Positions 32,193 through 54,646 of a DNA stretch of 64,000 bases are shown here, one piece after another. The notes under the pieces were generated by a model that saw only the letters and a list, made by a program, of their open reading frames with translations, ran no database searches and was not told the DNA's origin. Position numbers and translations under genes: made by a program. Origin of the DNA: an uncultured delta proteobacterium (lineage in GTDB: Bacteria > Desulfobacterota > Desulfobacteria > Desulfobacterales > B30-G6); NCBI GenBank assembly GCA_963823335.1, contig CAWGLD010000001.1:64001-128000 (forward strand). The letters run 5' to 3'. Position 1 is the first letter of the stretch. Each line of letters starts with the position of its first letter.

Positions 32193-32362
32193 CTCCAGCA
32201 AAAATAAGGTTATCAGACACCCTAAAAATTACCGGTGTGCGAAAATAATCACAACAGGCCAAAACTTGCATTGATAGACCCTGCCGTGATACCTTGGTGA
32301 TGACCAGATGGTATCTGAAAAATCCCCAACTTGTCGGATAGTTGGACTTGTCTCCATGTATC
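32193..32362. repeat. 170-bp repeat R2
   Basis: 170 bp; all anchors; right-arm type tatctga...ttgtcggata. Confidence 0.95.
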
Positions 32363-32366
32363 GGTA

Positions 32367-34443
32367 TTGCGACACGAAGTCGCGTATTTTAACTGTTCAG
32401 CGGAGGCATTTAGCCTTTGTCTGAACCCAGTGTCCCGTCGCTGCGATCCTATGGAAGCATGCGCTCAAGGTGCATCCTTGACGGGTATGAAGCCTTCCCG
32501 ACAATGCGCCGAAGTTCGCCTGTGCGAGCGGTGTGGAAACCGTGAGGTGGAAACGCTCCTGGAAGCTCCATCCGGGTGAGGTGTTAGGATAGGATACTAT
32601 GGTCAACGTAAGTAAACACTTGTAACTGCCGTGAATATGAACAAGCCAAAGGAGCTGTGAGGCTTGAACCAAAACGGTAAGTGGGTGGTTCGGATGGATT
32701 GCTGAACGTCCGACACGGGCAGTATTCCCACCGGCAGAGCAGAGTGGACCTAAGGTATTCGCTGTTGGATACGTGGAACGTGGTAACCTCATGCCTTCGC
32801 CTTCGGGCAGGCTAACCGTAAGGCATGCTGTGGGAGGTATGAGGAGAGAGGATGGAAGAAGCGAAGGCCATCCTGTAATGGGGTGGATACAGGTTGAGAG
32901 CCTTAGGCTCGATATTACCTAACCCGCGAGGGGGCTGACGTCCATCGGGTGCTTCGTTGCGAGATAGTTTGTAGAACTTCTAAAGGAGGAAAAGCAAATG
33001 AGGGCTGCTAAAAAGCAGATCCATGCGTCCTCCCGCCGTACTCTTAAGTGGACTTCCATAAACTGGAAGAAAGTTAAGAAGAAGGTGAAGGAGCTGCAGA
33101 TGCGTATCGCAAAGGCCGTTCGAGAAGGAAAGCTACGGCTGGTTAAATCTTTGCAGTGGCTTTTGACTCATTCGTTTTATGGTAAACTTTTTGCCATAAG
33201 ACGGGTTGTTACCAACAAAGGAAAAGCAACACCGGGATCCGATGGTGTTGTGTGGAACTCATCTAAAAAGAAGATGCAAGCTGTAAACCTGCTAAGCCGA
33301 AGAGGATATCGTCCTTTCCCCCTTCGGCGGGTTTATATACGGAAGAAAAACGGCAAACTCCGACCTTTAAGTATTCCCACCATGAGGGATAGAGCAATGC
33401 AGGCTCTATATGCACTTGCTCTGGTACCAGTAGCAGAGACAATCGGTGACCTAAATTCGTACGGGTTCAGAGATGGTCGATGTTGCGCCGATGCCATTAA
33501 GCAGTGCTACAATTGTCTGGCAAAGCGTCGTTCCTCGCGGTGGATTCTTGAGGCCGACATTCAAGCCTGCTTCGATAGAATCGATCACGAATGGATGCTC
33601 AACAATATCCTGACTGATAAAAAGATACTTAGAAGCTGGCTAAACGCCGGATACATAGACGAGGGTAAACTTTATCCAACCAAAGCGGGTACTCCACAGG
33701 GATCAGTTATCTCTCCTGTACTTGCCAATATGACCCTGGATGGACTGGAAGCGGCTATTAGAAATGCAGTTCCCAAGAACGCCAAGGTCAACATGATCCG
33801 GTATGCAGATGACTTTATCGTAACTGGAAAATCAGAAGAGATTCTCCAGGAAAAAGTCAAGCCTGCAATCCGCGCATTTCTCAGCCAAAGAGGTTTAAAT
33901 CTCTCAGGCGAGAAAACAAGGATCACCAGGATAGAGAATGGATTTGATTTTCTGGGCCAACATCTGAGAAAATTTGGGGATAAGTTTATTGTTACCCCAT
34001 CAAAGAACTCGGTGAAAGGCATTGTTTCCAAAACAAAGGAAGTCATCAAATCCCATCTTGGCAACGCAACAGCGGAGATGCTACGAGAGCTCAACCCAGT
34101 AATCCGGGGATGGGCCAACTATCACCGCCATGCATGCTCCAAGAAAGCCTTCAACTATGTTGATTCCCGCATCTTCAATAATCTCTGGATATGGGCTAAA
34201 AGAAGGCATCAGGATAAAAAGGCCCAGTGGATACGAAATCGTTATTTTCGAACCATTGGTAACCGGCAATGGTGTTTTTTTGCAACCAAAAAGGCAGAGG
34301 GAGGTGGGGTTGGCGTCATCGATTTGGTCTATATGGCCACGGTAAAAATAGTTCGTCATACGAAAATCCGTGGCAAGGCAAATCCTTACGACAATAGATG
34401 GCAGGGATATTTTTCCAAACCTTGTAGAATGAAGACTTATTAG
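32367..34443 (+). mobile_element. group II intron (CL-like), 3'-truncated
   Basis: 5' TTGCGACACG, about 630-nt structured leader, RT ORF; no domain V/VI motif after the stop. Confidence 0.8.
32998..34443 (+). CDS. ltrA: group II intron reverse transcriptase/maturase (no endonuclease domain)
   Basis: LQMRIAKA, RPLSIP, GTPQG, RYADDF, FDFLG, LNPVIRGWANY. Confidence 0.95.
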   Translation: MRAAKKQIHASSRRTLKWTSINWKKVKKKVKELQMRIAKAVREGKLRLVKSLQWLLTHSFYGKLFAIRRVVTNKGKATPGSDGVVWNSSKKKMQAVNLLSRRGYRPFPLRRVYIRKKNGKLRPLSIPTMRDRAMQALYALALVPVAETIGDLNSYGFRDGRCCADAIKQCYNCLAKRRSSRWILEADIQACFDRIDHEWMLNNILTDKKILRSWLNAGYIDEGKLYPTKAGTPQGSVISPVLANMTLDGLEAAIRNAVPKNAKVNMIRYADDFIVTGKSEEILQEKVKPAIRAFLSQRGLNLSGEKTRITRIENGFDFLGQHLRKFGDKFIVTPSKNSVKGIVSKTKEVIKSHLGNATAEMLRELNPVIRGWANYHRHACSKKAFNYVDSRIFNNLWIWAKRRHQDKKAQWIRNRYFRTIGNRQWCFFATKKAEGGGVGVIDLVYMATVKIVRHTKIRGKANPYDNRWQGYFSKPCRMKTY

Positions 34444-34480
34444 CGAAATCTTCAGTTCGATAAAATTTTACAAACACAAC

Positions 34481-34972
34481 ATGTTGGGTATAATTAATAT
34501 GCGAACCTTTGGATTAGCATCTATTTCCGATCTAAAAGGGTTGGTTAAAGTAGCAAAATCTGCATTCATAGATGATGAAAGATTCAAACCCCGTGAGGCA
34601 ACCGCAGGCGGTCCACCCGGACATGATCAAATAGAACGACATCGAGAATGGCTCGACTCATTGCTATACTATAAATGTGAAGAACACGGATCTATTGTAG
34701 GAACATGTACGGTAGAGATAAATGGTGATGAAGCAAAGATACATGGTATTCATGTGGTTTCTGAATCAATGGATCAAGGCATTGGCTCATATATGTTGCG
34801 TGAGATACAGACCGGGATGCCACATATAACTAAATGGACGTTAATTACGCCAGATTACGCTATACGCAACCAGCATTTTTATGAAATAAATGGGTTTACG
34901 TTGAAGCAAAGAGGTGATGTAGAACCAGATCTCGGGTTCGGCTTTTATACATATGAAAAAAATGTCCTATAA
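34481..34972 (+). CDS. GNAT acetyltransferase
   Basis: QGIGS, RNQHFYEINGF. Confidence 0.85.
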   Translation: MLGIINMRTFGLASISDLKGLVKVAKSAFIDDERFKPREATAGGPPGHDQIERHREWLDSLLYYKCEEHGSIVGTCTVEINGDEAKIHGIHVVSESMDQGIGSYMLREIQTGMPHITKWTLITPDYAIRNQHFYEINGFTLKQRGDVEPDLGFGFYTYEKNVL

Positions 34973-35064
34973 CAGCATTCCCCTTGATCCTATAAGCTTG
35001 GAGTGTTTTATACAGAGAAATTGAAGATTACTGGCATAAGTCTCCAACTGGCCATTGCCGATTT

Positions 35065-35234
35065 CTCCAACAAAACGGTAGATATCAGGCACGCCAAAAA
35101 TTACCGGTGTGCGAAAATAATCACAACAGCTCAAATCTTGCATTCATAAACCCCCTCGTGGTACCGTGGGGATGACCGAATGGTATCGGTAATATTGCCG
35201 TTGAACTTGATAACTGGACTTATCTCCATCTATC
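35065..35234. repeat. 170-bp repeat R3
   Basis: 170 bp; all anchors. Confidence 0.95.
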
Positions 35235-35281
35235 TGTACTTGGATGATATTTGGATTTTCACAGGGGATAAAGGTGGAATA

Positions 35282-36130
35282 ATGGGTTTTCATAGAAAGA
35301 CATTGGTCGATGGACTTATATTTGGCGAAGGCCCGCGTTGGCATGATGATCGCCTATGGTTTTCTGATATGCAGGCAGGCTTAGTTATGGCCACAGATAT
35401 TGATGGAAATTGTGAAAAAATTGTTGATGTGCCAGGGAGCCCATCGGGTCTCGGATGGCTACCAGACGGCCGGCTATTGGTTGTGTCTATGATCGATCGG
35501 CGTTTGCTCAGGATGGAAGGCGAACGGCTCATTGAACATGCTGACCTGAGTAATATTGCCACCTGGCATTGCAACGATATGGTTGTAGATGGCAAGGGAA
35601 ACGCCTATATTGGTAATTTTGGTTTCGATTTAGAGGTTAATGATATCAAGCCTGTTGAAGCCACAATGGCCATGGTAACCCCTGAGGGTGAAGTTACGCC
35701 TGCTGCTGATGGGCTACTGTTTCCAAATGGAACAGTTATTACCTCAGATGCCAGAACTCTAATTGTTGCTGAAACATATGGAGCAAGGCTCACAGCTTTT
35801 GATATTCAATCAGATGGTACTCTGACGAATCGTCGTCTGTTCGCTGATGTCTCTCCACACTTCCCTGATGGGATATGCCTCGACACTGAAGGTGCAATAT
35901 GGGTTGCTGATCCAGTTGGTGGTGAATGCATTCGTGTACTCGAGGGGGGTGAAATTACCCATAGAATTGATACAGGGCGCGGATGCTTTGCCTGCATGCT
36001 TGGGGGGGCGAATCGGAATACACTTTTTATGATGACTGCCGGTGATTTTAGAACAGATACCGTTGTACGGGCCCAAAATGGTAAGGTTGAATATGTTGAA
36101 GTTGATGTACCAGGTGCTGGTTGGCCGTAA
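35282..36130 (+). CDS. SMP-30/gluconolactonase family protein
   Basis: FGEGPRW, NDMVVD, FPNG, PDGICLD. Confidence 0.92.
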   Translation: MGFHRKTLVDGLIFGEGPRWHDDRLWFSDMQAGLVMATDIDGNCEKIVDVPGSPSGLGWLPDGRLLVVSMIDRRLLRMEGERLIEHADLSNIATWHCNDMVVDGKGNAYIGNFGFDLEVNDIKPVEATMAMVTPEGEVTPAADGLLFPNGTVITSDARTLIVAETYGARLTAFDIQSDGTLTNRRLFADVSPHFPDGICLDTEGAIWVADPVGGECIRVLEGGEITHRIDTGRGCFACMLGGANRNTLFMMTAGDFRTDTVVRAQNGKVEYVEVDVPGAGWP

Positions 36131-36226
36131 TATAACATAAACGGATTCCACGGATACTGAAAAAATGGAATTTGGTATACAGAACTATACATTGAAGTGA
36201 ATATTTTGGATTTTGGCCGTGGATGT

Positions 36227-36396
36227 CGCCAACAAAAACAAGGTTATCAGACCCCTTAAATATTACCGGTGTGCGAAAATAATCACAACCGACCGAATCT
36301 TGAATTAATAGTAGTTCTCATGGTACCGTGGAGATGACCGAATGGTATCGGTAATATTGCCGTTGAACTTGATAACTGGACTTATCTCCATCAATC
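36227..36396. repeat. 170-bp repeat R4
   Basis: 170 bp; all anchors. Confidence 0.95.
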
Positions 36397-36553
36397 ACAA
36401 CTTTGATGAATGTTGTGATAGCCATCTCAGAATAATACTATTGGTTGATTCTTTCTTTTCGGTTTGAATCTCGTAAGGTATTTTTTTTGCAAAAGAACTT
36501 TTTCAGTGCGAAGGAAGCAGAACTTCATACTTTTAATAAAGAAAGGAGGAATC

Positions 36554-37009
36554 ATGAGAATATTTGTTAAGATTGGGATAGTGTTTCTGGTCTTGGCCTT
36601 AAGTTTCGGTATCGCCTTGGCCCAATTTGCCAAAACTGAAGATGCCATTGAATACCGGAAGTCCGTAATGCAGGTAATCAAGAAACATTTTGGTAGCATG
36701 GCCAGTGTTGTTAAAGGCGAAACACCTTATGATCAGGCTGCATTCCTTGAAGACGCAAAGGTCGTGGCAATGTTGTCGAAACTGCCATGGGAGGCTTCTA
36801 TGGTTCCCGGTTCAAATGAGGGTCAAACAACATTAAACGAAAAAGCGTTGAAGGATAAAGAGGGATTTATGGCTGTTGCAAAACGGTTCCAAAACCATAG
36901 CAGTGAACTAGCTGCGGCAGCAGAAAGTGGTGATATGGGAAAAATAAAGAAGCAGTTCGGAGCCACCGCTCAAACATGTGGCAGTTGCCATAAGCCCTAC
37001 CGAAAATAA
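36554..37009 (+). CDS. cytochrome c' / c556
   Basis: AGGAGG RBS, signal peptide, AIEYRKSVM, C-terminal CGSCH. Confidence 0.92.
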   Translation: MRIFVKIGIVFLVLALSFGIALAQFAKTEDAIEYRKSVMQVIKKHFGSMASVVKGETPYDQAAFLEDAKVVAMLSKLPWEASMVPGSNEGQTTLNEKALKDKEGFMAVAKRFQNHSSELAAAAESGDMGKIKKQFGATAQTCGSCHKPYRK

Positions 37010-37019
37010 GTGCCCGGAT

Positions 37020-37623: not shown

Positions 37624-38948
37624 GAGGGTGTTCAAAATTTTGTGTCAGTCTAACTGAAAGCTGATATATACAGCCCAAAGGAGACTGACATGCCAAAAGA
37701 TAATGCAGATTTTGATTTCCAGAAAGCCCTCAAAGCCATCCAATCAGGCAAGCCCCTTACTGGCAAAGACGGGGTGCTCACCCCATTAATCAAGAACCTA
37801 ACCGAAGCTGCACTCGAAGGGGAGTTAGACTCCCATCTTGGACAGGAGATAGCGGCCAATCGAAGAAACGGTAAGAGCAAAAAGACCATCAAGACCCTGA
37901 ACGGCTCCTTCGAACTGAACACTCCCCGTGAGCGCAACGGCACTTTTTCACCCCAGCTGATTAAAAAGCATCAGACGACCATCAGCGATGAGATCGAAGA
38001 AAAAATCATTGCCATGTACGGCCTGGGCATGAGCTATAAAGACATATCTTTTCATCTTGAGGATATCTATGGCATTTCTGTCTCTAAGGGCACTCTGACT
38101 GCGATTACAGATAAAATCATTCACACCGTGAAAGAGTGGCAAGCCCGGCCGCTTGAAACGATATATCCCATTGTCTGGCTTGATGCCATACACTACAAAA
38201 TCCGTGAAGATGGCAAGGTCCTCAGTAAGGCTGTTTACACGATCCTCGGGGTCAATATTGAAGGCCGCAAGGAGGTCCTTGGCCTGTATATCTCAGAGAA
38301 CGAAGGGGCCAACTTCTGGCTGCAGGTGCTGACCGATCTCTCTAACCGTGGCGTTGCCGATATCCTGATCGCCTGTATTGATGGGCTAAAAGGCTTTCCA
38401 GAAGCCATCGAGACAATCTTCCCCAAAACGGAAGTGCAACTTTGTGTGGTGCATCAAATTCGGAATTCCTTAAAATACGTTGGCTCCAAAAACCAGAAGG
38501 AATTCATGGTCGATCTCAAGCGCGTCTACAAAGCAGCCAACAAGGATTTAGCCGAATCCGAATTGGACAAGCTCGAAGCCAAGTGGAACGACAAGTATCC
38601 GATTGTCATTAAGTCCTGGCGCAACAACTGGGAGCGTCTGAGTCAATTCTTCAAATACCCGGAGGATATCCGCAGGATCATTTACACAACGAACACCATT
38701 GAGGCGGTTCACCGTCAATTCCGTAAGCTGACCAAGACTAAAGGCGCTTTTCCGAACCAGGACAGTTTGTTGAAATTACTGTATATGGGCATCCAGAATG
38801 CCAGTAAAAAATGGACCATGCCGGTTCAGAACTGGTCATTAACTATCTCTCAGTTGGCTATATTTTTTGAGGGCAGACTGGATAAAGAATTAAAGCTCTG
38901 ATATGATTAATTACAATTTAAAACTGACACAGAATTCTGAACATACCC
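37624..38948 (+). mobile_element. IS256-family insertion sequence
   Basis: 26-bp imperfect terminal IRs (gagggtgttcaaaattttgtgtcagt / actgacacagaattctgaacataccc); no target duplication. Confidence 0.92.
37690..38901 (+). CDS. IS256 transposase
   Basis: NRRNG, WLDA, DGLKGF, QLCVVHQIRN, YTTNTIE. Confidence 0.97.
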   Translation: MPKDNADFDFQKALKAIQSGKPLTGKDGVLTPLIKNLTEAALEGELDSHLGQEIAANRRNGKSKKTIKTLNGSFELNTPRERNGTFSPQLIKKHQTTISDEIEEKIIAMYGLGMSYKDISFHLEDIYGISVSKGTLTAITDKIIHTVKEWQARPLETIYPIVWLDAIHYKIREDGKVLSKAVYTILGVNIEGRKEVLGLYISENEGANFWLQVLTDLSNRGVADILIACIDGLKGFPEAIETIFPKTEVQLCVVHQIRNSLKYVGSKNQKEFMVDLKRVYKAANKDLAESELDKLEAKWNDKYPIVIKSWRNNWERLSQFFKYPEDIRRIIYTTNTIEAVHRQFRKLTKTKGAFPNQDSLLKLLYMGIQNASKKWTMPVQNWSLTISQLAIFFEGRLDKELKL

Positions 38949-38953
38949 GATTT

Positions 38954-39123
38954 CTCCAACAAAAAGGTAAATATCAGCTCTCTGAAATTGTACCGGTGTG
39001 CGAAAATAATCACAACCGACCGAACCTTGCGTTGGCGTACCTTTCCGTGATACCTTGGCGATGACCATATGGTATCGGTGATATTCCCGTTGAACTTGAT
39101 AACTGGACTTATCTCCATGTATC
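38954..39123. repeat. 170-bp repeat R5
   Basis: 170 bp; begins 5 bp after the IS256 end. Confidence 0.95.
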
Positions 39124-39189
39124 AAAGGCGTGAGCACTATTAGATTTCCCCCAGAATATCTTTTCCAAAAGGTTCAAAATGACCATTTC

Positions 39190-39218
39190 TTGACCCATCC
39201 TTTTAATTCATGTATATA
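39190..39218 (+). promoter_or_regulatory. sigma70-type promoter
   Basis: TTGACC-17 bp-TATATA; same arrangement at 50495-50523. Confidence 0.6.
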
Positions 39219-39356
39219 TCGCATATCGCATCTAAATCACACCTGATCTGAAGCCGAATTTAAACTTGAACCTGAGTTGAGCTCATTCTCGATCTGTTCT
39301 CACCTTTTCCAAGACATATCATCTTCTTCAAACCTCAAAACCAGAAGGTGATCCAC

Positions 39357-41123
39357 ATGCCCACAGAAAAAAGAGCCACACGCAAACTCAGAGCCATTCT
39401 TTCTGCTGATGTTAAAGGCTACAGCATCCTTATAGCGGATGATGAGACCTTCACAATCAAAACTATTAAAGAATATCGAAGCATAATATCCAACTGCATC
39501 GAGCAATATGCCGGTCGGGTTGTGGATAGTCCCGGTGATAACATACTGGCGGAGTTTGCAAGTGCGGTTGATGCTGTACAGTGTGCAGTGGAAATTCAAA
39601 AACAATTGAAGAAAGAAAATGACCGGCTTGTAGAGAACAAAAGGCTGGAGTTCAGAATTGGTGTGAACATCGGTGATGTTGTGCAGGATGAGAATCGTAT
39701 CTATGGTAATGGTGTTAACATTGCCTCAAGGATTGAGGGTTTGGCAGATCCTGCTGGCATCTGTGTATCTCGCAGTGCATACGATCAGATAAAAAATAAA
39801 ATGGGTTTCAGTTTTGAATATATGGGGGAACACTCTGTTAAAAATATATCTGAACCAGTAAGAGTTTATAAAGTTCTAATGCATTCTAATTCACCATCAC
39901 CTTTGGTTGAAGAGACGCTGAAGCTGCCGGACAAACCATCCATTGCAGTCTTGCCATTTGTAAACATGAGTGGAGATCCTGAGCAGGAGTATTTTTCTGA
40001 TGGAATAACAGAAGACCTCACAACTGTTCTGTCACGGAATTCGTTGATGTTTGTGATAGCACGGAACTCCAGCTTCGCCTACAAAGGAAAGGCAGTCGAT
40101 GTAAAAAAAATTAGCAAAGAACTTGGGGTTCATTATGTATTGGAAGGAAGCGTACGAAAGGCAGGAACAAGAATCCGTGTAACAGCACAGCTTATTAATG
40201 GGATTAATGGAAAGCATGTATGGGCAGAGAAATATGATGGTGAGCTTCAAGACATTTTCGATTTGCAGGATCAAATAACACAAAAGATTGTTGCTTCAAC
40301 CCAAACCCAAGTAGCATTAAGTCTTGGAGAAGTCAGAACAGCTGCAAGACATGAAAACTTAGATACTTGGGATATTACCGCAAAAGCTTTAAAATATAGT
40401 TATGATCTAACTGAAGACAGTCTTAGAAAGGCTGAAAAACTCTTACGATCAGCCATAAAGTCAAATCCAAAATCTGATTCTGCTTATGCTTTGCTTGCAA
40501 GTGTTTTATTTCATCTATTATTGATGGGGTATGAACAGGAGAACGTTAGTGAAATTTTAAATGAATCTTTTCAATACTCAGCAAAAGCAATATCAATTAA
40601 TGAATCTAATGAAATTGGGCATTGGATTAACGGAAACCTTCAGCTATTTTCCAGAAGAAATCATGATTATGCGCTTGCGGAGTATGATCGTCTGATAGAA
40701 ATAAATCCTAATAATTCGTTAGCATATGGCTCTCTCGGCGCTGCCCTAACATTTTCCCGAAAATATGATCAAGCAATAAAAAATATTGAATTAGCAATAA
40801 GAATTAATCCTATGGACCCAAGCATATTTTTTCGATTCTCTGAAATAGCATTGGCTTATCTTCTTAAAGGAAAATATAACGATGCAATTGATTGGTCAAC
40901 CAAGTGTATCCATAAAAGATCCAGTTGGATAGCTGGTCATTTTGTTTTAATAGCATCTCTTGTAAATCTTAATCGTCTCGATGAAGCAAAACAAGCAACC
41001 AAGGAGTTGTTGAATACCAACCCAACTGCAAGAGCATCTGATATTTCAATGTATCCGTTTAAATACGCTGAAGATGTGATAAAGTTACAAAAAGCTCTCT
41101 GTAAAGCAGGTCTACCTGAATAA
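39357..41123 (+). CDS. class III adenylate/guanylate cyclase with TolB-like and TPR domains
   Basis: AILSADVKGYS, GD, FRIGVNIGDV, GVNIASRIE, SIAVLPF, TPR repeats. Confidence 0.93.
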   Translation: MPTEKRATRKLRAILSADVKGYSILIADDETFTIKTIKEYRSIISNCIEQYAGRVVDSPGDNILAEFASAVDAVQCAVEIQKQLKKENDRLVENKRLEFRIGVNIGDVVQDENRIYGNGVNIASRIEGLADPAGICVSRSAYDQIKNKMGFSFEYMGEHSVKNISEPVRVYKVLMHSNSPSPLVEETLKLPDKPSIAVLPFVNMSGDPEQEYFSDGITEDLTTVLSRNSLMFVIARNSSFAYKGKAVDVKKISKELGVHYVLEGSVRKAGTRIRVTAQLINGINGKHVWAEKYDGELQDIFDLQDQITQKIVASTQTQVALSLGEVRTAARHENLDTWDITAKALKYSYDLTEDSLRKAEKLLRSAIKSNPKSDSAYALLASVLFHLLLMGYEQENVSEILNESFQYSAKAISINESNEIGHWINGNLQLFSRRNHDYALAEYDRLIEINPNNSLAYGSLGAALTFSRKYDQAIKNIELAIRINPMDPSIFFRFSEIALAYLLKGKYNDAIDWSTKCIHKRSSWIAGHFVLIASLVNLNRLDEAKQATKELLNTNPTARASDISMYPFKYAEDVIKLQKALCKAGLPE

Positions 41124-41176
41124 AGGATATCTGTTGTATATCTCATATCTTTCAGATATTCAAAATAGTGTAGTAT

Positions 41177-41346
41177 CTCCAACAAAAACAAGGTTATCAG
41201 ACCCCTGAAAATTTACCGGTGTGCGAAAACAATCACAACAGACGGAATCTTGCATTGGTAAGGTCTCCCATGGTACCGTGGGCATGACCGTATGGTATCG
41301 GCAATAATTTCGTTGAATTTGATAACTGGACTTGTCTCCATGTATC
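41177..41346. repeat. 170-bp repeat R6
   Basis: 170 bp; all anchors. Confidence 0.95.
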
Positions 41347-42290: not shown

Positions 42291-42460
42291 CTCCAACGAT
42301 TCGGTAGATATCAGAGTGCTGAAAATTTACCGGTGTGCGAAAATAATCACAACAGACCAATTCTTGCATTGGCAGGACCTCCCGTGATACCGTGGGCATG
42401 TCCATATGGTATCAGCAATATTGCCGTTGAACTTGGTAACTGGACTTATCTCCATAAATC
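42291..42460. repeat. 170-bp repeat R7
   Basis: 170 bp; all anchors. Confidence 0.95.
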
Positions 42461-42564
42461 ACAGTTTCCAGTTTGAAGACTTATTAGCGTAGCCTTCAGT
42501 TTGGTATTATTTTCATCGACCACAAGATGTGGTATCGGAAATTTTAGATGAATGGTGTAGCTCC

Positions 42565-43032: not shown

Positions 43033-43058
43033 GTCAAGGATAGGGAACACCTAGCACT

Positions 43059-43228
43059 CTCCAACAAAAACAAGGATATCAGACCCTTAAAATATTACCG
43101 GTGTTTGAAAATAATCACAACAGGCAGAATCTTGCATTCATAAGCCCTAAAATGGTACCATGGCGATCACCAGATGGTATCGGTAATATTGGCATTGATC
43201 TTGATAACTGGACTTATCTCCATGTATC
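43059..43228. repeat. 170-bp repeat R8
   Basis: 170 bp; all anchors. Confidence 0.95.
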
Positions 43229-46000: not shown

Positions 46001-46106
46001 AACGTCAATTCGCAGGATTTCGAAATGTCGCCATACTGAGTGGATGTCTCGGACAGGGGGACCATCACGACGACTAAAAATTGAGGTTTCCTAAAACCGT
46101 GGATAT

Positions 46107-46340
46107 CTCCAACAAAAACAAAGATATCATGCACGCCAAAAATTACCGGTGTGCGAAAATAATCACAAATTAAAAGGGTGAGTCCGAGCCATGGATTCGC
46201 CCCTTTTTTATTGGCACAAAGCAGCGTTATTAGGGTCTACAGTTTGACACCAGGTTTAATGATGCGATAGACTGCATATATCCAGATGGTATCGGTGATA
46301 ATTAGGCTGAGCTTGATAACTGGACATCTCTCCATGTATC
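46107..46340. repeat. 170-bp repeat R9 with central replacement (234 bp)
   Basis: left and right arms intact; centre replaced by about 110 bp carrying a terminator-like hairpin. Confidence 0.85.
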
Positions 46341-46433
46341 CGTATATTTCGTTAATAATTTTTTATTTAAAATTCCTGGCCGGTTATAATGGTTGTTCTA
46401 CAGTTAAATTTGGTCTCTACAAAGGATGATTAA

Positions 46434-47741
46434 TTGAAGCAGAAGCACACATATCAAGAATTGAAAAAAGAGAATGAATTATTAAGGAAGCAACTGCAAA
46501 TCCTTCAAGAGAACGCGGATCGGTTCAATGACATCGCTGAGAATGCATTAGAATGGATCTGGGAAGTCGATAAGGAAGGAAGGTATACATATTCAAGCCC
46601 TGTCGTAAAGGTTATCTTAGGCTATGAACCCGAGGAGGTTTTAGGAAAACACTTCTCTGATTTTTTTCATCCCAAGGATAAGAAAAAAATGTTAGCTGAG
46701 GCCTCCAAGGCTTTCGATCAAAGATTTCCCTTCAGGAAATTTATTAACCAAAATGTACATAAAGATGGCAATAAAAAGGTGTTTCTTTTAACGAGTGGTA
46801 TCCCTGTGTTTGATTCTGAAGGGGCATTTTCGGGATATCGTGGGGCTGACATGGATGTAACAGAACAATATGTGGCTAAAAAAGCTCTAAAAGAAAGCGA
46901 AGAACACCTACGATCACTAATGCAGAGAGCCTCAGGGTTTGCCATTTACCGGTTGGCATATAATAAAGTTTCCCCATATTCCTTGCGGGTTGTTTTAGCC
47001 AGTCCATCCGTGAAAGACATCCTGGGCATACCTGATCAAACGAAATTCGAGATGTGGTTTGAAAATATCCATGCTGATGACAGGGAAAGAATCATAAAAG
47101 CTAATTTGAAAGCGTTTGAAACGAATGAATTTAATGAAGTCATGAAGATTAATCATCCTGACAAAAAGGAGCATCGCTGGATTCATTCAATTGCTAAAGG
47201 CATTTTCTCGCAATATGGCGAATTACAATATATCAATGGCATTATAATCGATATTACAGAACGTAAACTTGTTGAAGAGGCTTTGATTGAGAAAGAGAAA
47301 GAATTAGAATCCAAGACAAACAAGCTTGAAGAGATAAATGTCGCCCTGAACGTCCTGTTAGAAAAAAGAGAGGAAGATAAAATACTCTTGCAAGAGCAGG
47401 TACTGTCCAACGTAAAAAAATTGGCGATCCCCTATGTCGAAAAATTAAAAAAAGGCACCCTCACCGAAACACAAATTGCCTTGCTTGATGTTTTAGAATC
47501 AAGTTTGCACGAAATTATTTCACCGTTTTCCCTCAAGCTGGCCTCTAATTCTTTCGGATTAACGCCCGCCGAAATCAAAGTGGCTTCTCTTATAAAACAG
47601 GGCAAAGGGACAAAAGAAATAGCAAAGATGCGAAATCTTTCGCATAAAACAGTAGCACGCCATAGGGAGAATATAAGAAATAAGCTCGGTATAAAAAATA
47701 CAAAAGTCAATCTACAGTCCCACCTAATTTCCTTCGCATAA
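46434..47741 (+). CDS. PAS-PAS-LuxR transcriptional regulator
   Basis: two PAS/PAC domains; LTPAEIKVA...TKEIA...TVARHRENIRNKLG. Confidence 0.92.
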   Translation: MKQKHTYQELKKENELLRKQLQILQENADRFNDIAENALEWIWEVDKEGRYTYSSPVVKVILGYEPEEVLGKHFSDFFHPKDKKKMLAEASKAFDQRFPFRKFINQNVHKDGNKKVFLLTSGIPVFDSEGAFSGYRGADMDVTEQYVAKKALKESEEHLRSLMQRASGFAIYRLAYNKVSPYSLRVVLASPSVKDILGIPDQTKFEMWFENIHADDRERIIKANLKAFETNEFNEVMKINHPDKKEHRWIHSIAKGIFSQYGELQYINGIIIDITERKLVEEALIEKEKELESKTNKLEEINVALNVLLEKREEDKILLQEQVLSNVKKLAIPYVEKLKKGTLTETQIALLDVLESSLHEIISPFSLKLASNSFGLTPAEIKVASLIKQGKGTKEIAKMRNLSHKTVARHRENIRNKLGIKNTKVNLQSHLISFA

Positions 47742-47817
47742 CACCCATAATAAATAGGTACTATATGGGCTATAAAATGGCATTGATTGTCTTGTCAATT
47801 TGAATTAGAAAATAATT

Positions 47818-47924
47818 ATAGGGATGCGCTCTGGGCTCATCGCCCATTGGCACCTCCAACCCTGTAAAAAGCCCCTGAGAAGATAATTCATTTGCCAGTA
47901 CCTTCTCCATCTTGGGGGCTTTTT
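47818..47924 (+). ncRNA. candidate structured small RNA, copy 2
   Basis: near-identical to 21104-21211. Confidence 0.5.
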
Positions 47925-48029
47925 CAATATGGATCTTCAGCCCGACCGATTCCTTACCTTGGAATATTGTATTATGTTAATTTGTTTTTGGACAGGTTAG
48001 GACTGTCTATATCTTTCAACCTAAATCTC

Positions 48030-50255: not shown

Positions 50256-50258
50256 TTT

Positions 50259-50428
50259 CTCCAACGAAAACAAGGTTATCAGCCCCCTAAAATATTACCG
50301 GTGTGCGAAAATAATCACAACCGACCGAATCTTGCATTAATAATAGTTCCCATGGTACCGTGGGGATGACCGAATGATATCTGACAATTTTTCAGATTGT
50401 CGGATAGTTGGACTTGTCTCCATAAATC
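50259..50428. repeat. 170-bp repeat R10
   Basis: 170 bp; R4-like centre with R2-like right arm. Confidence 0.95.
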
Positions 50429-50661
50429 TGTATTGCGAGAATAGTAGTTTTTCATCAAAATATTAAAGTCACCCAGTGGCAATTCACCCATACCTTGACC
50501 CATCATGACGAATCGTGTATATACCTTATAACATACTTGAATCACACCTGATCTAAAGCTGTTTCTCATTGTTTACACGTAGCCTAAGCCCTTTCTCGAC
50601 TTGTCAGTACCTTCCCAAAAGGTATTATAATTATACAAATCAACAACTTTGGAGGTGACTA

Positions 50662-51171
50662 ATGCCGGCCTATCTGAAAGAAGTGGATGTAGTCCCAGAA
50701 GTTTTAAAATTTAAATCTGCCCTCACCGTCAGCTGTCGATTCTGTCCTGCAGCCAGTTTAGCCATACGAAACAATAAACCTTATATAGAATTCTTTCGCA
50801 GGTTGCTTAAGACTGAACCGTATGAAGAGCTTATTGACAAAATGCAATCACGTCTGAAAAATGAGGGTCTTAAAACAGGCGTGTTTAAAGGTAATCTCCT
50901 TAATTATCTCATGTGCATGTGGACTTCAGGACGCCGAAAGAAATTATTAAAGCGTGCAAGTCAATTTGAAGCCGTTGTTGTTATGGGTTGTGAAAATGCA
51001 TATGAAAGCGTGCAAGATATTCTTAAATCGACCGATTGCCAAGTATTTCATGGCATGGAATCTGAAGGTCTTATGAACGTTATTCCAAAAGTTCATCTAC
51101 CGTTCAATATTTCGCTCGAAAAATTCAAAATAACTCCGATAACACTAAAAGCGAAACAAACGGAGGAATGA
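50662..51171 (+). CDS. Cys-containing hypothetical protein
   Basis: GGAGG RBS; CRFCP, MCM, GC. Confidence 0.75.
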   Translation: MPAYLKEVDVVPEVLKFKSALTVSCRFCPAASLAIRNNKPYIEFFRRLLKTEPYEELIDKMQSRLKNEGLKTGVFKGNLLNYLMCMWTSGRRKKLLKRASQFEAVVVMGCENAYESVQDILKSTDCQVFHGMESEGLMNVIPKVHLPFNISLEKFKITPITLKAKQTEE

Positions 51172-51193
51172 TAAACGACAAATTCAACCGTCT

Positions 51194-51352
51194 TTTCAAC
51201 AACTATGCAGATATCAGGTGCTCCCGAAATTAAAATTATCACAACAGACCAAATCTTGCATCCATAGACACCTACGTGGTACGCTGATGATCACCAGATG
51301 GTATCGGTAAATTTATCAGGGAAATTGATAACTGGACTTTTCTCCATGTATC
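51194..51352. repeat. 170-bp repeat R11 (about 11-bp internal deletion)
   Basis: lacks accggtgtgcg; other anchors present. Confidence 0.85.
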
Positions 51353-51642
51353 AAAGATTGATGTAGAACATAAAAAGGCATCTATAGAATATTAGTGTTA
51401 TGCATTTTTAAAACCTATACTAATATTTTTTTAGAAAACGAATAATAATGAAAAATCATATTCTAGTTCTTGTCGTAGGAAAGTTGAGGTGGAAATCAAT
51501 TGGCAGCTTCAACCCGAATACGTTTCCACCGGAATTACGAAGCACGGCAATGAATTGTGGTGATCAGCTTGCTTTAAAAAATAAATCGAACTTTGTTTAA
51601 AAAGAAAATAGAATATCATAAATTATCGAGAAGGCGCAGCCT

Positions 51643-52899
51643 ATGAAAAAATACTTCATTCTGACGTTAGCTGTTTGCTTGGGTTTAATTAGCAACCCGG
51701 TTTCGGCTTGCACCGGCCTGGTGGCAAATGACCATGAGCGCGTGTTGGTGGGCAACAATGAAGACTGGTTCAACCCGCGCACTAAAATCTGGTTCATACA
51801 GCCGTTGAACGACCGGTATGGCAGCGTGTTTTTTGGCTTTGATAATTACTGGCCTCAAGGCGGTATGAATCAGAAAGGGCTATTTTTTGATGCATTCGCT
51901 TTAGAACCAAAGGAGGTAGATGGGCAGGAGGGTAAACCCCGTTTTAAAGGCAACCTGATAAAAGAGGTAATGGCGACCTGTGCGACGGTAAAAGAGGCTT
52001 TGGCCTTGTTAGATAAATACAGTCTACATTTCATGACTCGTTTTCAGATGTTCGTGGCCGATGCCTCTGGCGACTCTGCCATTATCGAAGGCAACGCCAT
52101 AATTCGTAAAGAAGTGAATTATCAAGTGGTGACCAATTTTCGCCAATCAGAAACCGACCCCAGTGAGACTTCTTGTTGGCGCTACCGGGTCGCCAATGAC
52201 ATGCTGATGAATTGCCGTGAAGATAAGCTTCACTGTATACGCAGTATTCTGGACGCTACTCACCAGAAGGGGGACTACCCGACGCTTTATTCAAACATAT
52301 ATGATCTGAAAGCTAAGCGGGTTTATGTATACTATTTTCACAATTTTCAAGAAGGAGTTGTGATTGATCTCGAAAACGAACTCATAAAAAAGCCTGGAAT
52401 TCTTGATCTACCCGATTTATTTTCACCAAATCTTGAGGCACAGGCATATCTTGCTCAGTTCACCAACCTCAAGAAGGAATATACACACAACGTACCTAAA
52501 TTTGTAGTGCGCTATCCTGAAGAGTATGAGGAGGACAAAACACTGGATCCCACCCAGGTCTTTCTGGCCAAAAGTCGTTACGGGCAGCCGGTACTAACAG
52601 TCTCAGTAACTCCTGCTGAGGCTAAGATGACGCTTTCCAGGGTCGGCAGTGAATATTATGCACATGGGTTACGCCAGTTCGGAAAACAAGTTCAGATTAT
52701 CTCCAATCGTCCGGCCAAGTTGGCCGACGGTTCAGAGGCCTATGAGACTAAAATTGTTTGGCAGTATCAGGGAAAAACCAAATTAAATAGTCTGGTGCTT
52801 TCCGCCTTTAGAGAGGATAAGCTTATCAATGTGGCCCTACATCACACTGGTGAGCTGAATTATTTGAAACACATACCTTACAGTCTGAGCTTTGAATAG
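51643..52899 (+). CDS. secreted Ntn-hydrolase-like protein (C45/C59-like) with extra C-terminal domain
   Basis: signal peptide then CT, GNNED, GGMNQKGL, VTNF. Confidence 0.75.
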   Translation: MKKYFILTLAVCLGLISNPVSACTGLVANDHERVLVGNNEDWFNPRTKIWFIQPLNDRYGSVFFGFDNYWPQGGMNQKGLFFDAFALEPKEVDGQEGKPRFKGNLIKEVMATCATVKEALALLDKYSLHFMTRFQMFVADASGDSAIIEGNAIIRKEVNYQVVTNFRQSETDPSETSCWRYRVANDMLMNCREDKLHCIRSILDATHQKGDYPTLYSNIYDLKAKRVYVYYFHNFQEGVVIDLENELIKKPGILDLPDLFSPNLEAQAYLAQFTNLKKEYTHNVPKFVVRYPEEYEEDKTLDPTQVFLAKSRYGQPVLTVSVTPAEAKMTLSRVGSEYYAHGLRQFGKQVQIISNRPAKLADGSEAYETKIVWQYQGKTKLNSLVLSAFREDKLINVALHHTGELNYLKHIPYSLSFE

Positions 52900-53016
52900 C
52901 GCCGCTAAACAGATAACTGAAAGCACTCGGCCTTGAAGAACCTACAAGTACCCTGTCAGTATCGCGAGGAAGTGCCGGATTGTGGTCACAAACGGGTACC
53001 TAAAAATCATATGGGA

Positions 53017-53129
53017 TTGAAAACCCGTGATAGCTGGTACCTTTCCTATAGGTAGATGTTGTGGAGGCGAGCGAGCCCGTAGGGTGTAGCTCGCGGAGTC
53101 TCCACAACTCTATCGATAGGGGTTTTCAA
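53017..53129. repeat. 113-nt imperfect hairpin bounded by TTGAA/TTCAA
   Basis: ttgaaaaccc/gggttttcaa, gttgtggag/ctccacaac, gcgagc/gctcgc nested stems. Confidence 0.8.
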
Positions 53130-53131
53130 GC

Positions 53132-53301
53132 CTCCAACAAAAACAAGGTTATCAGATACCTAAAATTTCACCGGTGTGCGATTATAATCACAACAGGCTG
53201 AATCTTGCATTGATAAGAATTTCCGTGGTGCTTTGGTGATGCCCAGATGGTATCGCTGATATTTACATCAAACTTGATAACTGGACTTATCTCCATAAAT
53301 C
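53132..53301. repeat. 170-bp repeat R12
   Basis: 170 bp; all anchors. Confidence 0.95.
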
Positions 53302-53411
53302 TGTATGTTGAGCGAGTTTCCCCAAAAGTAACGCAATTATCATATTTCAAGGCCTATTTGACCAAGAATTAATGCTTAGCTATACCTTTAAATCAAAAAG
53401 GAGGTCGTAGG

Positions 53412-54527
53412 ATGAAATTTAGAATACTATTGAGTGCATTGTTGGTATCTCTGCTGTTGTTTAGCACCCATATTGCGAAAGTCCATGCCTGTACTGGTAT
53501 AAGATTGTCAGCGAAGGACGGATCGACAGTCTATGGAAGAACTATGGAATGGGGGACTTTTGACCTAAATTCCAGAGTTGCAATTTTTCCACGTGGATAT
53601 GAATTTACCGGTCTCACTCCTGATGGTCATAACGGTAAAAAGTGGAAATCGAAATACGGCATTGTCGGCCTTGATCTGCTGGGAAAAGACCTGCTCGCTG
53701 ATGGTATGAATGAAAAAGGGCTGGCAACGGGCCTTTTTTATCACCCCGGTTTTGCCAGCTATATGAAGTACGATAAGAGTCAGGCAAATAATTCGATCAC
53801 AGCCGTTGATATTGTCTCGTTTATTCTTTCTCAGTTTGCCACGATAGATGAGGTCAGAAGCGGTATGGAAAGTGTGAGGGTTGTTCCGGTTGTGGAAGAG
53901 GCAATAGGGATTCCAGTACAGGGGCATTGGATGGTGACAGAACCCTCTGGAAAGTCGATTGTCATTGAGTATCTGGACAACAAGCTGCGAATTTTCGACA
54001 ATCCGTTGGGCGTTATCACAAATTCTCCCAGCTACGATTGGCATATGACCAATCTGCGTAATTATATAAATCTCTCGGCAGTTGCACTTCCTACAAAAAA
54101 GATCAAAGATCTCGATTTTTCTCCTTTGGGAGGTGGAAGCGGTATGATCGGTCTTCCGGGTGATTTCACGCCCCCGTCCCGTTTTGTTCGTGCGGTAGCG
54201 TGGTCCCAGACTGCCCGACCACTGGAGAAATCGGACGAAGCGATGTATGAACTTTTCCGTATTCTTGACAACTTCAATGTACCCCTTGGGGCTGCTGAAG
54301 GCTCGGATAGTGAGCAGACAAATCTGAAAGGGATGCGAAGCTCAACAATCTGGACTACCGGATGGGATCTTACAAAGAGGGTGCTTTATTTCCATACTCA
54401 GCATAACCGTCGTGTGCGTCAAGTTACGCTAAATAAAATTGACTTTTCAGGAAAAGAAATTGCTCACATTCCACTCGACGATAAAAAAGATCAAGACATT
54501 AAAGACATTTCACTAAACGCAAAATAG
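53412..54527 (+). CDS. choloylglycine hydrolase / penicillin V acylase family (C59)
   Basis: signal peptide, CTG, GRTME, DGMNEKGL, TNSP, GLPGDFTPPSRFVRA. Confidence 0.93.
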   Translation: MKFRILLSALLVSLLLFSTHIAKVHACTGIRLSAKDGSTVYGRTMEWGTFDLNSRVAIFPRGYEFTGLTPDGHNGKKWKSKYGIVGLDLLGKDLLADGMNEKGLATGLFYHPGFASYMKYDKSQANNSITAVDIVSFILSQFATIDEVRSGMESVRVVPVVEEAIGIPVQGHWMVTEPSGKSIVIEYLDNKLRIFDNPLGVITNSPSYDWHMTNLRNYINLSAVALPTKKIKDLDFSPLGGGSGMIGLPGDFTPPSRFVRAVAWSQTARPLEKSDEAMYELFRILDNFNVPLGAAEGSDSEQTNLKGMRSSTIWTTGWDLTKRVLYFHTQHNRRVRQVTLNKIDFSGKEIAHIPLDDKKDQDIKDISLNAK

Positions 54528-54543
54528 AAAGTGGCTGACTTGT

Positions 54544-54646
54544 GATTTCTCCAACTCATCAACGGTGTAGAGGCCTTCTGAAAAGTGGTGATACCACATT
54601 GTCAATTCATGCCCTGACTCGGTTTTCAATTCTGTCAATTCAAGTA
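54544..54646. repeat. repeat family B, copy 2, preceded by the left tip of the 170-bp repeat
   Basis: gatttctccaac then tcatcaacggtgtagagg...gtcaattcaagta. Confidence 0.8.

Follow-up and report, generated by a model that had tools for sequence, protein, structure and literature searches.

Co-oriented gene modules bounded by a 170-bp repeat that may be a miniature derivative of a tyrosine-recombinase element

Integrons are co-oriented arrays of single, unrelated accessory genes with a conserved, species-typical site behind each gene, in which crossover occurs at the far right end of the site and a few conserved bases open the next module, a group II intron can lie right behind the site, and the gene for a tyrosine recombinase, a member of the Xer/IntI superfamily, runs against the direction of the cassettes. 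The arrays described here, from an uncultured relative of sulfate reducers (genome G000; the 64,000-nt stretch analysed, hereafter the window, is part of its contig C1), share all these features. Unlike integron sites, however, the repeat has no hairpin fold and carries direct repeats at its ends, IntI and a separate attI platform are both absent, a full-length version of the site itself houses the recombinase gene, the site can move alone, many cassettes have leaders of 70–310 bp that leave room for a promoter of their own, and there are many arrays per genome. Acinetobacter plasmid dif (pdif) modules and dif-integrating elements dependent on host Xer are likewise small modules with Xer-type sites of arm, 6-bp centre and arm, and their insertion regenerates the site so that modules accumulate; here, in contrast, the sites are direct and not alternating as reported for dif modules, each core is extended on one side by about 145 bp of further conserved sequence, and the elements are chromosomal and associated with a dedicated recombinase rather than, or besides, host XerC/XerD.

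As in MITEs and mobile insertion cassettes, short non-coding copies are abundant, retain the two ends of a longer enzyme-encoding element and are presumably mobilised in trans, but the parent here encodes a tyrosine recombinase and not a DDE transposase, terminal inverted repeats are absent, the ends share a 5-bp direct core, and the copies are clustered and co-oriented instead of scattered. The cer and psi sites of plasmids have an Xer-type core flanked on just one side by roughly 150–180 bp of accessory sequence, a layout shared by the repeats; they occur once per plasmid and serve multimer resolution with host accessory proteins, whereas the repeats are recurring boundaries of gene modules. 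Tycheposons of marine cyanobacteria are also cargo-bearing tyrosine-recombinase elements stacked in tandem in variable islands and have small enzyme-less satellites. They integrate at tRNA genes and are kilobases long, whereas the elements described here target their own short core and have a satellite of 170 bp.

A profile search of the genome gave 15 matches in the window corresponding to 14 repeat elements, 11 of them full-length or nearly so, one divergent and two right-end fragments, all on the + strand. These are the 11 copies, the outlier at 21961 and the partial copy of the preliminary description, each of which was present in the orientation given there, and one fragment missing from it. 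The 12-mer TCTCCATNNATC occurs 14 times in the window, always on the + strand and at a repeat right end, against 0.25 occurrences expected from shuffles. With the starts listed earlier and the ends placed at this 12-mer, the nine copies described as exactly 170 bp are indeed of that length (32193–32362, 35065–35234, 36227–36396, 38954–39123, 41177–41346, 42291–42460, 43059–43228, 50259–50428 and 53132–53301, all + strand and found by both profile search and 12-mer), the last matching a copy on contig C9 at 97% identity although neither of its flanks is related to those of that copy. The copy at 51194–51352 (+) has 159 bp owing to an 11-bp deletion in the left module, and that at 46107–46340 (+) is a 234-bp variant with the usual left and right modules around a different centre, a longer stretch with a terminator-like hairpin resembling the stretch behind the recombinase gene of full-length elements; this subfamily also occurs in G004, in G007 and on contig C10 of G000. 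The divergent full-length copy (21961–22131, +), 64% identical to the reference copy, ends in the core TCTCCATACATC, and the two right-module fragments with core, likewise on the + strand, lie at 22675–22749 (profile positions 102–184) and at 24203–24259 (positions 129–185), the latter being the one not listed before; the divergent copy and both fragments were also found by both methods.

The repeat begins with CTCCAAC and ends with TCTCCAT|NNATC, CTCCA being present at the two ends as direct and not inverted copies. Its right end forms an imperfect dyad of 26 bp with a 6-bp centre (GATnnnTGGA-CTTRTC-TCCATnnATC), the left arm of which is variable and absent from some repeat subfamilies; this is the core layout of Xer-type sites, and the earlier statement that the repeats are not dif-like needs softening to that extent. 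Of the 12 window copies, 4 have an open minus-strand frame of 42 codons, in a fifth it extends to 66 codons and in the rest it is interrupted by stops, so that the claim of no frame staying open across copies was essentially right. Genome-wide the frame is open in about 24 of 49 copies, no third-position excess was found in it among the genome copies (entropy 0.65/0.63/0.72), and the repeat is not clearly coding.

Thirteen modules, each reaching from just after one core to the next, occupy 22132–53301 (+) and measure, in order, 618, 1510, 8103, 2872, 1162, 2727, 2223, 1114, 768, 3112, 4088, 924 and 1949 bp. Each consists of a leader and one or more genes followed by the repeat at the 3′ end, and the annotated genes, all on the + strand and mutually unrelated between intervals as previously noted, encode two GNAT proteins, a gluconolactonase-like protein, cytochrome c′, an adenylate cyclase-TPR protein, an fn3 protein, a PAS-LuxR protein, a SulP-cNMP protein, two CBAH/AAT hydrolases and an IS256-type transposase. 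Throughout the genome, 86 of 99 ORFs of at least 100 aa between co-oriented cores are on the strand of the repeat. The mechanism proposed below leaves this strict co-orientation of gene and repeat unexplained. A group II intron (32367–34429, +) starts 4 nt past the core of copy 32193, with a D1-D4 RNA match at 32426–32583 and an RT/maturase ORF at 32998–34443; its 3′ limit is approximate, being placed by the homology between positions 34430–34469 and the leader (42474–42513) at the 5′ end of the GNAT cassette. Such an intron sits just behind the site in 8 copies. Abutting the left end of copy 53132 is a 104-nt hairpin repeat (53028–53131, +; predicted −50 kcal/mol) with 8 copies in the genome, 4 of which, this one included, abut the left end of a repeat.

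The extent of the repeat is much larger than the preliminary description saw, with 88 profile matches in the genome representing about 75 copies in about 13 clusters, 11 of the 13 being uniform in orientation, and with matches in 13 out of 41 related genomes (among them G000), 10 of the 14 genomes of the same family having dozens of copies each. Where a uniform model predicts 8.3 occurrences of the core 12-mer, the genome has 86; 57 of these are at profile-detected repeats, and among the remaining 29 at least 7 are part of a second family of repeats, which differ in body but share the core. Directly behind recQ, three congeners have DNA that in G000 is found on another contig, and since the array is absent there it constitutes variable DNA. 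All genomes are metagenome-assembled (G000 is 93.9% complete with 4.6% contamination) and the repeats could cause some misjoins in them, but the array architecture recurs across independent assemblies.

Homology breakpoints coincide with the two ends of the repeat, CTCCAAC on the left and TCTCCAT|NNATC on the right, and the blocks they delimit show that either the approximately 160-bp unit alone or a gene with its downstream repeat has been copied to new contexts. Two blocks of G000 (C7:213.4–214.7 kb and 226.8–228.1 kb), 13 kb apart and not in tandem, share 99.6% identity over a stretch that opens at the right-end core of the left repeat, takes in the gene and the next repeat in full and stops exactly after ...CTCCATGTATC, their left repeats being only about 70% alike. 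A second pair of gene plus repeat, in G007, is 100% identical in the body, 99% upstream and 54% downstream. Two repeat pairs are 97–98% identical while their flanks are unrelated on both sides, identity running from the CTCCAAC start to just after TCTCCAT with differing NN dinucleotides; the repeat is thus a discrete unit that has itself moved alone, a point missed by the preliminary description. In two informative cross-species pairs (TT and CT) NN goes with the downstream module, and a gene of G000 and one of G007 share 98% identity yet have different repeats behind them. Comparison of the array regions of four genomes gave 24 homology blocks with a minimum of 400 bp and 93% identity, of which 5 had ends within 10 nt of the core in both partners and 2 more in one. 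Gene conversion from one repeat to another could in principle also produce such sharp breakpoints.

A full-length version of the repeat, roughly 1.1 kb long, is located 36 kb beyond the window on contig C1 of G000 and consists of the right module (163777–163843), a 278-aa Xer/XerA-like tyrosine recombinase gene with its own ribosome-binding site (frame 163905–164735), a terminator and the left module (164784–164851), the gene being antisense to the cassette genes. A truncated twin lies at C9:36153–36758, and the layout of a recombinase gene between the two modules is also present in G001 and in G015, a member of another family. An enzyme encoded outside the window had been anticipated; that the repeat seems to be a miniature of this element had been overlooked. 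The protein has a Phage_integrase domain (69–77 bits), its translations show RIGE, HDLRR, LRH and TTQ.Y motifs, and its best named relatives are XerA, XerD and XerC, all under the cut-off. Relatives with 60–98% identity are encoded by 80 metagenome contigs; the reverse complement of the left end was present 60–200 nt past the stop in 24 of 57 loci with enough flank, and that of the right core, with G or T allowed at one place, 90–220 nt ahead of the start in 24 of 58, where about 1% or less per locus is expected by chance. An A8–A10 run with a change of frame was found in the gene in 42 of 57 metagenome loci (A9 in 36), the others being intact without the run (13) or in frame with it (2), which points to programmed slippage. 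The only full-length copy of G000 requires the frame change for a whole protein, the second copy being truncated, and close database relatives are called as 225–268 aa, more distant ones as 278 aa. Of the 13 repeat-positive genomes 9 had a recombinase homologue, compared with 6 of the 28 repeat-negative ones, counts that are not independent because the genomes are kin, and all 5 homologues of at least 82% identity came from repeat-positive genomes. With this query none was found in G005, G012, G013 and G014 (4 of the 13), three of which are assemblies in 310–580 contigs. Relatives at 44–63% identity occur in genomes without this repeat and may serve other repeats.

The Xer-site layout of the right end, two XerC/D-like genes in the genome (C3:153918–154847 and C5:425332–426312) and the four repeat-rich genomes without a detectable homologue would all agree with modules whose cores are recognised by the host's own dimer-resolution recombinases XerC/XerD, as in the Acinetobacter dif modules, with the embedded recombinase a passenger. 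The organism's dif site was sought in the genome and not located. We consider this unlikely, as the two modules of the repeat flank the embedded gene in several genomes and at 24 of the 57 or 58 metagenome loci, which is not expected for a passenger, and as the sites are all direct while dif modules are reported to alternate in orientation. There is also only a small chance that the 160-bp unit is a miniature element and nothing else, inserting at short sites behind genes that are not themselves mobile as modules, with gene plus repeat duplicating by homologous recombination or segmental duplication. The near-identical repeat pairs in unrelated flanks and the gene shared by G000 and G007 with different repeats behind it fit such an element, but the C7 duplicate is not in tandem with its twin and has both limits at right-end cores, the same downstream modules stand behind different repeats across species with NN conserved, and random insertion would give neither the uniform orientation of 11 of 13 clusters nor the shared strand of 86 of 99 ORFs.

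Atypical, very long attC sites, with the integron integrase encoded elsewhere or lost, would account for co-oriented, promoter-proximal genes with a conserved site behind each, crossover at its right end and integron-typical cargo such as GNATs and small hypothetical genes; group II introns that target attC exist, and those behind 8 copies recall them. Yet the best match to the integron-integrase model scored 88.5 bits against a cut-off of 265, no consensus hairpin was found among 98 copies (mean z only about −1.2), the ends are direct and not complementary, two short inverted boxes are without covariation, and Rfam gave no match at E up to 1, so the earlier separation from attC holds and this explanation is very improbable. 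Equally improbable is rolling-circle capture of the IS91 (HUH) type, with the right end as nick or termination site and modules copied by read-through. Transposase genes of the IS91 family, accompanied by a 296-aa tyrosine recombinase, are present inside arrays of G004 (two) and G001 (one), adjoining repeats truncated at the right side, and one sharply conserved end with little conservation past it fits a nick site; but tblastn found no IS91 transposase homologue in G000 despite its recent duplicates, and the IS91 genes may be plain insertions, the repeat holding tetranucleotides that are targets of IS91. Readings of the element as a structured RNA, as a regulatory leader or terminator common to the genes, or as the gene of a small protein (the 42-codon frame) would explain why it always stands between the end of one gene and the start of the next, the hairpin of the 234-bp variant and the frame being open in about half of the copies. 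These ideas are largely refuted, since neither strand has a consensus structure or an Rfam match, codon periodicity is lacking, full-length elements have the frame cut short after 20 codons, and neither the breakpoints nor the embedded recombinase are accounted for. The comparison with Tn3/gamma-delta res, drawn in the preliminary description from short TATC/GATA sub-motifs of which several lie about two helical turns apart, has practically nothing left in its favour, with no match to the serine resolvase family (PF00239) from 5 candidates scored in the 93.9%-complete genome. What stands of that description's overall interpretation is a recombination site bounding movable modules, as the breakpoints at its ends indicate, whereas its stacking of circular modules is a conjecture that we share.

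From the anatomy, the breakpoint positions, the embedding of the recombinase gene and the conservation of the A-run and end motifs, all observed directly, we regard it as rather probable that the repeats are miniature, non-autonomous derivatives of the tyrosine-recombinase element, with the core they share as the means by which cassettes are excised and stacked; action of the recombinase on the cores, circle formation and slippage are what we infer. The recombinase of a full-length copy, supplied in trans, would exchange strands at the cores, its output probably held low by the slippery A9 run that needs a change of frame. Exchange between the two cores of one repeat would move the repeat alone, and a circle of leader, gene and repeat, able to re-enter at any other core, would be released if two successive repeats exchanged strands at their right cores. 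As every insertion would regenerate the core, co-oriented arrays of unrelated accessory genes would accumulate, as in integrons and at dif. Literature searches found no description of such a gene-shuffling system, and the arrays of this organism and its relatives look like an integron-like one.

The array of direct repeats claimed in the preliminary description is real, and repeat finding, alignment and profile searching showed it to be more extensive than was stated there. Repeat finding and alignment gave 12 copies of about 170 bp, all on the + strand, between window positions 21961 and 53301, the repeat running from CTCCAAC at its left end to TCTCCAT and then NNATC at its right, with NN a variable dinucleotide. 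A search profile built from nine window copies gave 15 matches in the window part of contig C1, representing 14 elements, and this search also placed right-end fragments on the + strand at 22675-22749 and 24203-24259. Nine copies are exactly 170 bp long, as the preliminary description has it, and all 14 window copies lie on the + strand. The variant at 46107 has a different centre and a length of 234 bp; the copy at 51194 lacks 11 bp. The 12-mer TCTCCATNNATC occurs 14 times in the window against 0.25 expected, in every case on the + strand and at a right end of the repeat. The window genes between the copies, as annotated, are on the + strand throughout and mutually unrelated.

The 88 profile matches in the whole genome correspond to about 75 elements, 49 of them nearly full-length. 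Apart from 5 single matches, they are grouped in some 13 clusters, with uniform orientation in 11 of the 13. Approximately 57 modules, each consisting of a leader, one or more genes and the downstream repeat, lie between co-oriented copies of the core, the short CTCCA-containing end motif, and the arrays make up a few percent of the genome. The repeat and 86 of 99 ORFs are co-oriented, a strand bias that the mechanism proposed below does not account for. A second repeat family of about 190 nt, with a terminator-like hairpin and a different body, carries the same right core TCTCCATNNATC and is found in the same orientation inside the same arrays (contig coordinates C1:1511023, C4:539576, C7:225778, C1:1769462, C9:46733 and C10:29057). 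By BLAST the repeat is present in 13 of 41 related genomes, this one counted. The other carriers, often with dozens of copies apiece, comprise ten of the 14 genomes from its own family and a single member of each of two further families. When a single genome per species was scanned for an exact 24-mer, matches were limited to assemblies of uncultured Desulfobacterales or 'delta proteobacterium', with the exception of a single 2.6-kb contig filed under another phylum. Viral contigs scanned with the conserved 24-mer gave no match.

The positions at which homology starts and stops were informative about exchange. On contig C7 a 1.1-kb block occurs twice, 13 kb apart, with 99.6% identity. The duplicate starts inside TCTCCATGTATC, the end of the left repeat, the bodies of the left repeats being otherwise only about 70% alike; it spans leader, gene and the whole next repeat, and stops exactly after ...CTCCATGTATC of that repeat. 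A second pair of duplicated modules was found in the related genome G007. Two cross-species pairs have the same downstream module (95-99% identical) behind different repeats, and in both of them the rare NN dinucleotides TT and CT travel with the downstream side. Conversely, two pairs of repeats are 97-98% identical with both flanks unrelated, the identity reaching from CTCCAAC to just after TCTCCAT and the NN differing. Among homology blocks of at least 93% identity and at least 400 bp in the array regions of four genomes, 5 of 24 have an end no more than 10 nt away from a core in both partners. Together the duplicated modules, the cross-species pairs, the lone-repeat pairs and the homology blocks place exchange at the short core CTCCA, at both repeat ends. 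Judged from these alignments, both the unit of about 160 bp and the combination of leader, gene and repeat have moved. The duplicated modules and cross-species pairs also display a cassette anatomy, namely a gene with a site at its 3′ end and the crossover at the right end of that site.

The genome contains 86 occurrences of the core, where a uniform model predicts 8.3, and at least 7 of the 29 occurrences outside profile matches belong to the second repeat family. The right core consensus of 103 copies reads as an imperfect dyad, GATnnnTGGA-CTTRTC-TCCATnnATC, with a 6-bp centre. Its right arm, which opens each downstream module, is nearly invariant, in part through how the copies were selected; its left arm is 60-90% conserved and missing from one subfamily. 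The breakpoints put exchange between -13 and -6 from the repeat end, which fits putative cleavage at the boundary of the 6-bp centre and the right arm. At the singleton C1:1737057 homology with relatives does not extend beyond the upstream gene and stops 200-250 bp short of the repeat, and no empty site can therefore be read there. Of public sequencing data, 20 runs contain at most a third of the sampled words, and four of these runs gave only short Logan contigs, with joints inside repeats and contig ends at cores, as repeat-induced assembly breaks would give. All the genomes are metagenome-assembled and misjoins at repeats are possible; the same architecture is seen in independent assemblies.

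The repeat is built of three parts, a left module at profile positions of about 5-72, a right module at about 118-185 and between them a centre that can be replaced, and split copies broken at the module limits recur. At C1:163777-164851, 36 kb past the window, the two modules stand 940 bp apart and a tyrosine recombinase gene lies between them on the opposite strand, with its own ribosome-binding site and start. A truncated twin of this full-length element is found on contig C9. The same layout occurs in G015, a genome of another family, with a protein 82% identical, and in the related genome G001 with 97% identity. The stretches that flank the gene in the present genome and in G015 correspond to profile positions 5-72 and 118-184. 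The stop codon of the recombinase gene is followed by a terminator hairpin, behind which lies the left module. A similar hairpin is retained in the 234-bp window variant, which suggests that the miniatures may be internal-deletion derivatives of the full-length element. In a metagenome set of 80 contigs encoding recombinase relatives of 60-98% identity, the left-end motif lies at a fixed distance behind the recombinase stop in 24 of the 57 loci with enough flank, and 24 of 58 loci have the right-core motif, in which one position is G or T, ahead of the start.

The recombinase has 278 aa and matches Phage_integrase (PF00589) at 69-77 bits against a cut-off of 27. The motifs RIGE, HDLRR, LRH and TTQ.Y are visible in the translations, their residues having been assigned to the catalytic pattern R..H-x-x-R..H/W..Y by eye and not by structural alignment. 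Its nearest named relatives are archaeal XerA, XerD and XerC, but its scores lie far under their curated NCBIfam cut-offs (126 versus 220, 68 versus 330 and 65 versus 335, respectively), and its solved relatives are Xer proteins only. A large protein collection contains 4164 clusters at E <= 1e-30, mostly of exactly 278 aa and on contigs of 1-2 kb, with database names limited to 'integrase/recombinase XerD' or similar. A homologue was present in 9 of 13 repeat-positive versus 6 of 28 repeat-negative genomes, counts from 41 related genomes that are kin and so not independent. The five homologues with at least 82% identity are all in repeat-positive genomes. Other tyrosine recombinase matches near arrays, a 375-aa integrase at C7:240.5-241.6 kb and fragments at C4:151.8 kb and C1:1516 kb, were set aside as they have no consistent position relative to the arrays. 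The IS91 transposase, which lies inside arrays of the related genomes G004 and G001 and was not found in the present genome, was likewise rejected. Its genes encode 404 aa and are paired with genes for a 296-aa tyrosine recombinase inside arrays, beside repeats truncated on the right side (G004 loci L109, 5703-7749, and L112, 349-2395; G001 locus L122, 4650-6696), and the two G004 copies of the pair are 99.9% identical over 2.5 kb.

The recombinase gene of the full-length element (C1:163901-164735) contains, about 20 codons in, a run of A that is one base too long for the frame. An A9 tract near the gene start followed by a frame change is shared by this genome, G001, G002, G015 and both G007 copies, and G037 has the same frame change with A8. 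A run of A8-A10 with the frame change was found in 42 of the 57 metagenome loci (L165-L244) with a recognisable start, 36 of these having A9; of the remaining loci 2 have the run in frame and 13 are intact without a run. Gene calls are 225-268 aa in close database relatives and 278 aa in distant ones, and the genomes G024 and G031 have in-frame forms of 278 aa. The agreement of many independent assemblies makes programmed slippage, transcriptional or translational, a likelier candidate than sequencing error.

Of the known systems, integrons are the closest in module anatomy, crossover position, antisense recombinase and arrays, but neither IntI nor a folded attC was found here. The best match to the integron integrase model (TIGR02249) in the whole genome, which is 93.9% complete, scored 88.5 bits with a cut-off of 265, and the embedded recombinase scored 52 bits against that model. 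The attC boxes RYYYAAC ... GTTRRRY are complementary outer ends of an imperfect palindrome, unlike the repeat ends CTCCAAC and TCTCCAT, which are direct and not complementary. RNAalifold on 98 copies from four genomes gave 0.0 and -0.5 kcal/mol with no helices on either strand, and single-copy folds had a mean z of about -1.2 relative to shuffles, with energy parameters for RNA and not DNA. Rfam gave no match over the repeats at gathering score and none at E up to 1 over three copies. A structured RNA or an attC-like hairpin was rejected for the lack of a consensus fold, the weak z-scores and the lack of an Rfam match, and a bridge-RNA-like gene for the IS110-type ORF of the window was dropped on the same grounds. 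A small minus-strand protein was also considered, since a 42-codon frame begins in the right end of the repeat; only some half of the copies keep this frame open, it has no codon periodicity and ends after 20 codons in full-length elements, and for these reasons it was rejected and the repeat is treated as non-coding.

The dif (pdif) modules may have the idea of an Xer-type core in common with the repeat; such cores have two inverted arms of some 10-11 bp on either side of a 6-8 bp centre. The flanking sites of dif modules stand in inverted, alternating orientation, as the abstracts on them also state, unlike the repeat with its uniform orientation in the window and in 11 of the 13 clusters. 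A dif search of the genome with the enterobacterial motif, which may not be that of the host, gave no match at up to 7 mismatches. The resemblance to Tn3/gamma-delta res sites proposed from sub-motifs of the repeat was not borne out: no match to serine recombinase (PF00239) was found in the genome, which leaves that comparison without an enzyme. The relation of parent and miniature, with both parent ends kept, is that of a MITE. Unlike MITEs, which have inverted ends, variable target duplications and scattered copies in random orientation, the repeat has ends that are direct copies of a fixed 5-bp core, and it is clustered and co-oriented. Full-text searching, judged on titles and abstract openings, found no description of the repeat or of the recombinase element.

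The array is bordered on the left by recQ (window 18244-20136). In G001, G004 and G007 recQ gives way within a few hundred bases to DNA located here on contig C10 (C10:23256-1). There is no array behind recQ in these three congeners, which marks the window array as variable DNA beside a synteny break. Either a rearrangement or an assembly interrupted at repeats accounts for the break, and because the second flank is on another contig no insertion site can be defined at recQ. Contig C10 starts with repeat copies. The 3′ end of a PAS-LuxR gene with its terminator (window 47401-47926) has a duplicate of 90-99% identity on the left margin of the array region, just past recQ (20940-21213), and a third copy of the 3′ end, at C1:1513187-1513822, has 91.5% identity. 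To the right of the array the stretch 57864-63687, with a cNMP-binding protein and an AAA/DUF4143 ATPase, is accessory DNA too; it also holds a PIN/Phd toxin-antitoxin pair on the minus strand (59138-59844) and an ORF with only the C-terminal domain of an IS110-family transposase (60525-61301).

Some modules are 94-99% identical between species. The commonest cargo is an adenylate cyclase-TPR protein, with a cluster of 20 in 12 array regions of this genome, G001, G004 and G007 that includes window 39348-41123, followed by response regulators (13) and alpha/beta hydrolases (8); acetyltransferases and hydrolases are also among the cargo. The cytochrome c' module is 2.7 kb long as a result of the insertion of an IS256/Mutator-family transposase gene (37690-38901, 362 bits). 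Two tandem c-di-GMP-I riboswitches (24361-24445 and 24822-24906) precede a gene for a PKD-domain protein (25012-26751) and a third (30002-30086) precedes small ORFs of unknown function, the three scoring 75-84 bits, and further ones were seen by eye in the C10 array remnant. A 104-nt hairpin repeat of -50 kcal/mol (53028-53131) is present eight times in the genome (other copies at C1:1248162, C7:217223, C4:170875, C9:36072 and elsewhere). Three copies agree at 99-100% identity, and four copies including that of the window end exactly at the left end CTCCAAC of the repeat.

A group II intron (window 32367-34429) starts 4 nt after the final ATC of the repeat and has the same position in 8 copies from four genomes (the others at about 19.2 kb on C9 and in the array-bearing loci L110, L116, L117, with two, L120 and L123), the 4 nt preceding it differing between copies. 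Its RT/maturase ORF has no endonuclease domain in Pfam, and no Rfam D5/D6 match was reported in the window copy. Some group II introns target attC sites or terminators, and this one appears to be targeted to the repeat at its right end.

We rate the repeat system as a cassette or module system based on tyrosine recombinases, and there is a fair chance that it deserves the status of a separate platform. In the mechanism proposed, the cores would be acted on in trans by the recombinase from a full-length copy. A small element would be delimited by both cores of a single repeat, and a module by the right cores of successive repeats; such a module would leave as a circle and re-enter at any core with regeneration of the site, so that arrays could grow as in integrons or at dif. 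More conjecturally, exchange might involve one strand and be finished by replication. The repeat has about 145 bp of conserved sequence in addition. The fullest reading, offered tentatively as possible and somewhat short of probable, is that of a second, independently evolved integron-like platform, in which a family of small Xer-like recombinases, with thousands of variants in sediment metagenomes, resides inside its own site, miniatures tag single genes for excision, interspecies exchange and stacking into many chromosomal arrays, and programmed slippage at A9 throttles the enzyme.

Integrons are the textbook system for capturing and stacking single genes, with dif modules as a narrower second example. 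Should the reading hold, relatives of sediment sulfate reducers would have a third gene-stacking system made of other components: its site would be double-stranded, free of hairpins and itself mobile, and its recombinase would come from a different Xer/IntI branch. The compact recombinase and short site would be directly testable, and the tyrosine recombinase gene would clearly qualify as a candidate for programmed frame change. The reading would also give a context to the 278-aa 'XerD-like integrases' that occur anonymously in their thousands on short metagenome contigs, and the system would be a main route of accessory gene flow in an abundant uncultured group.
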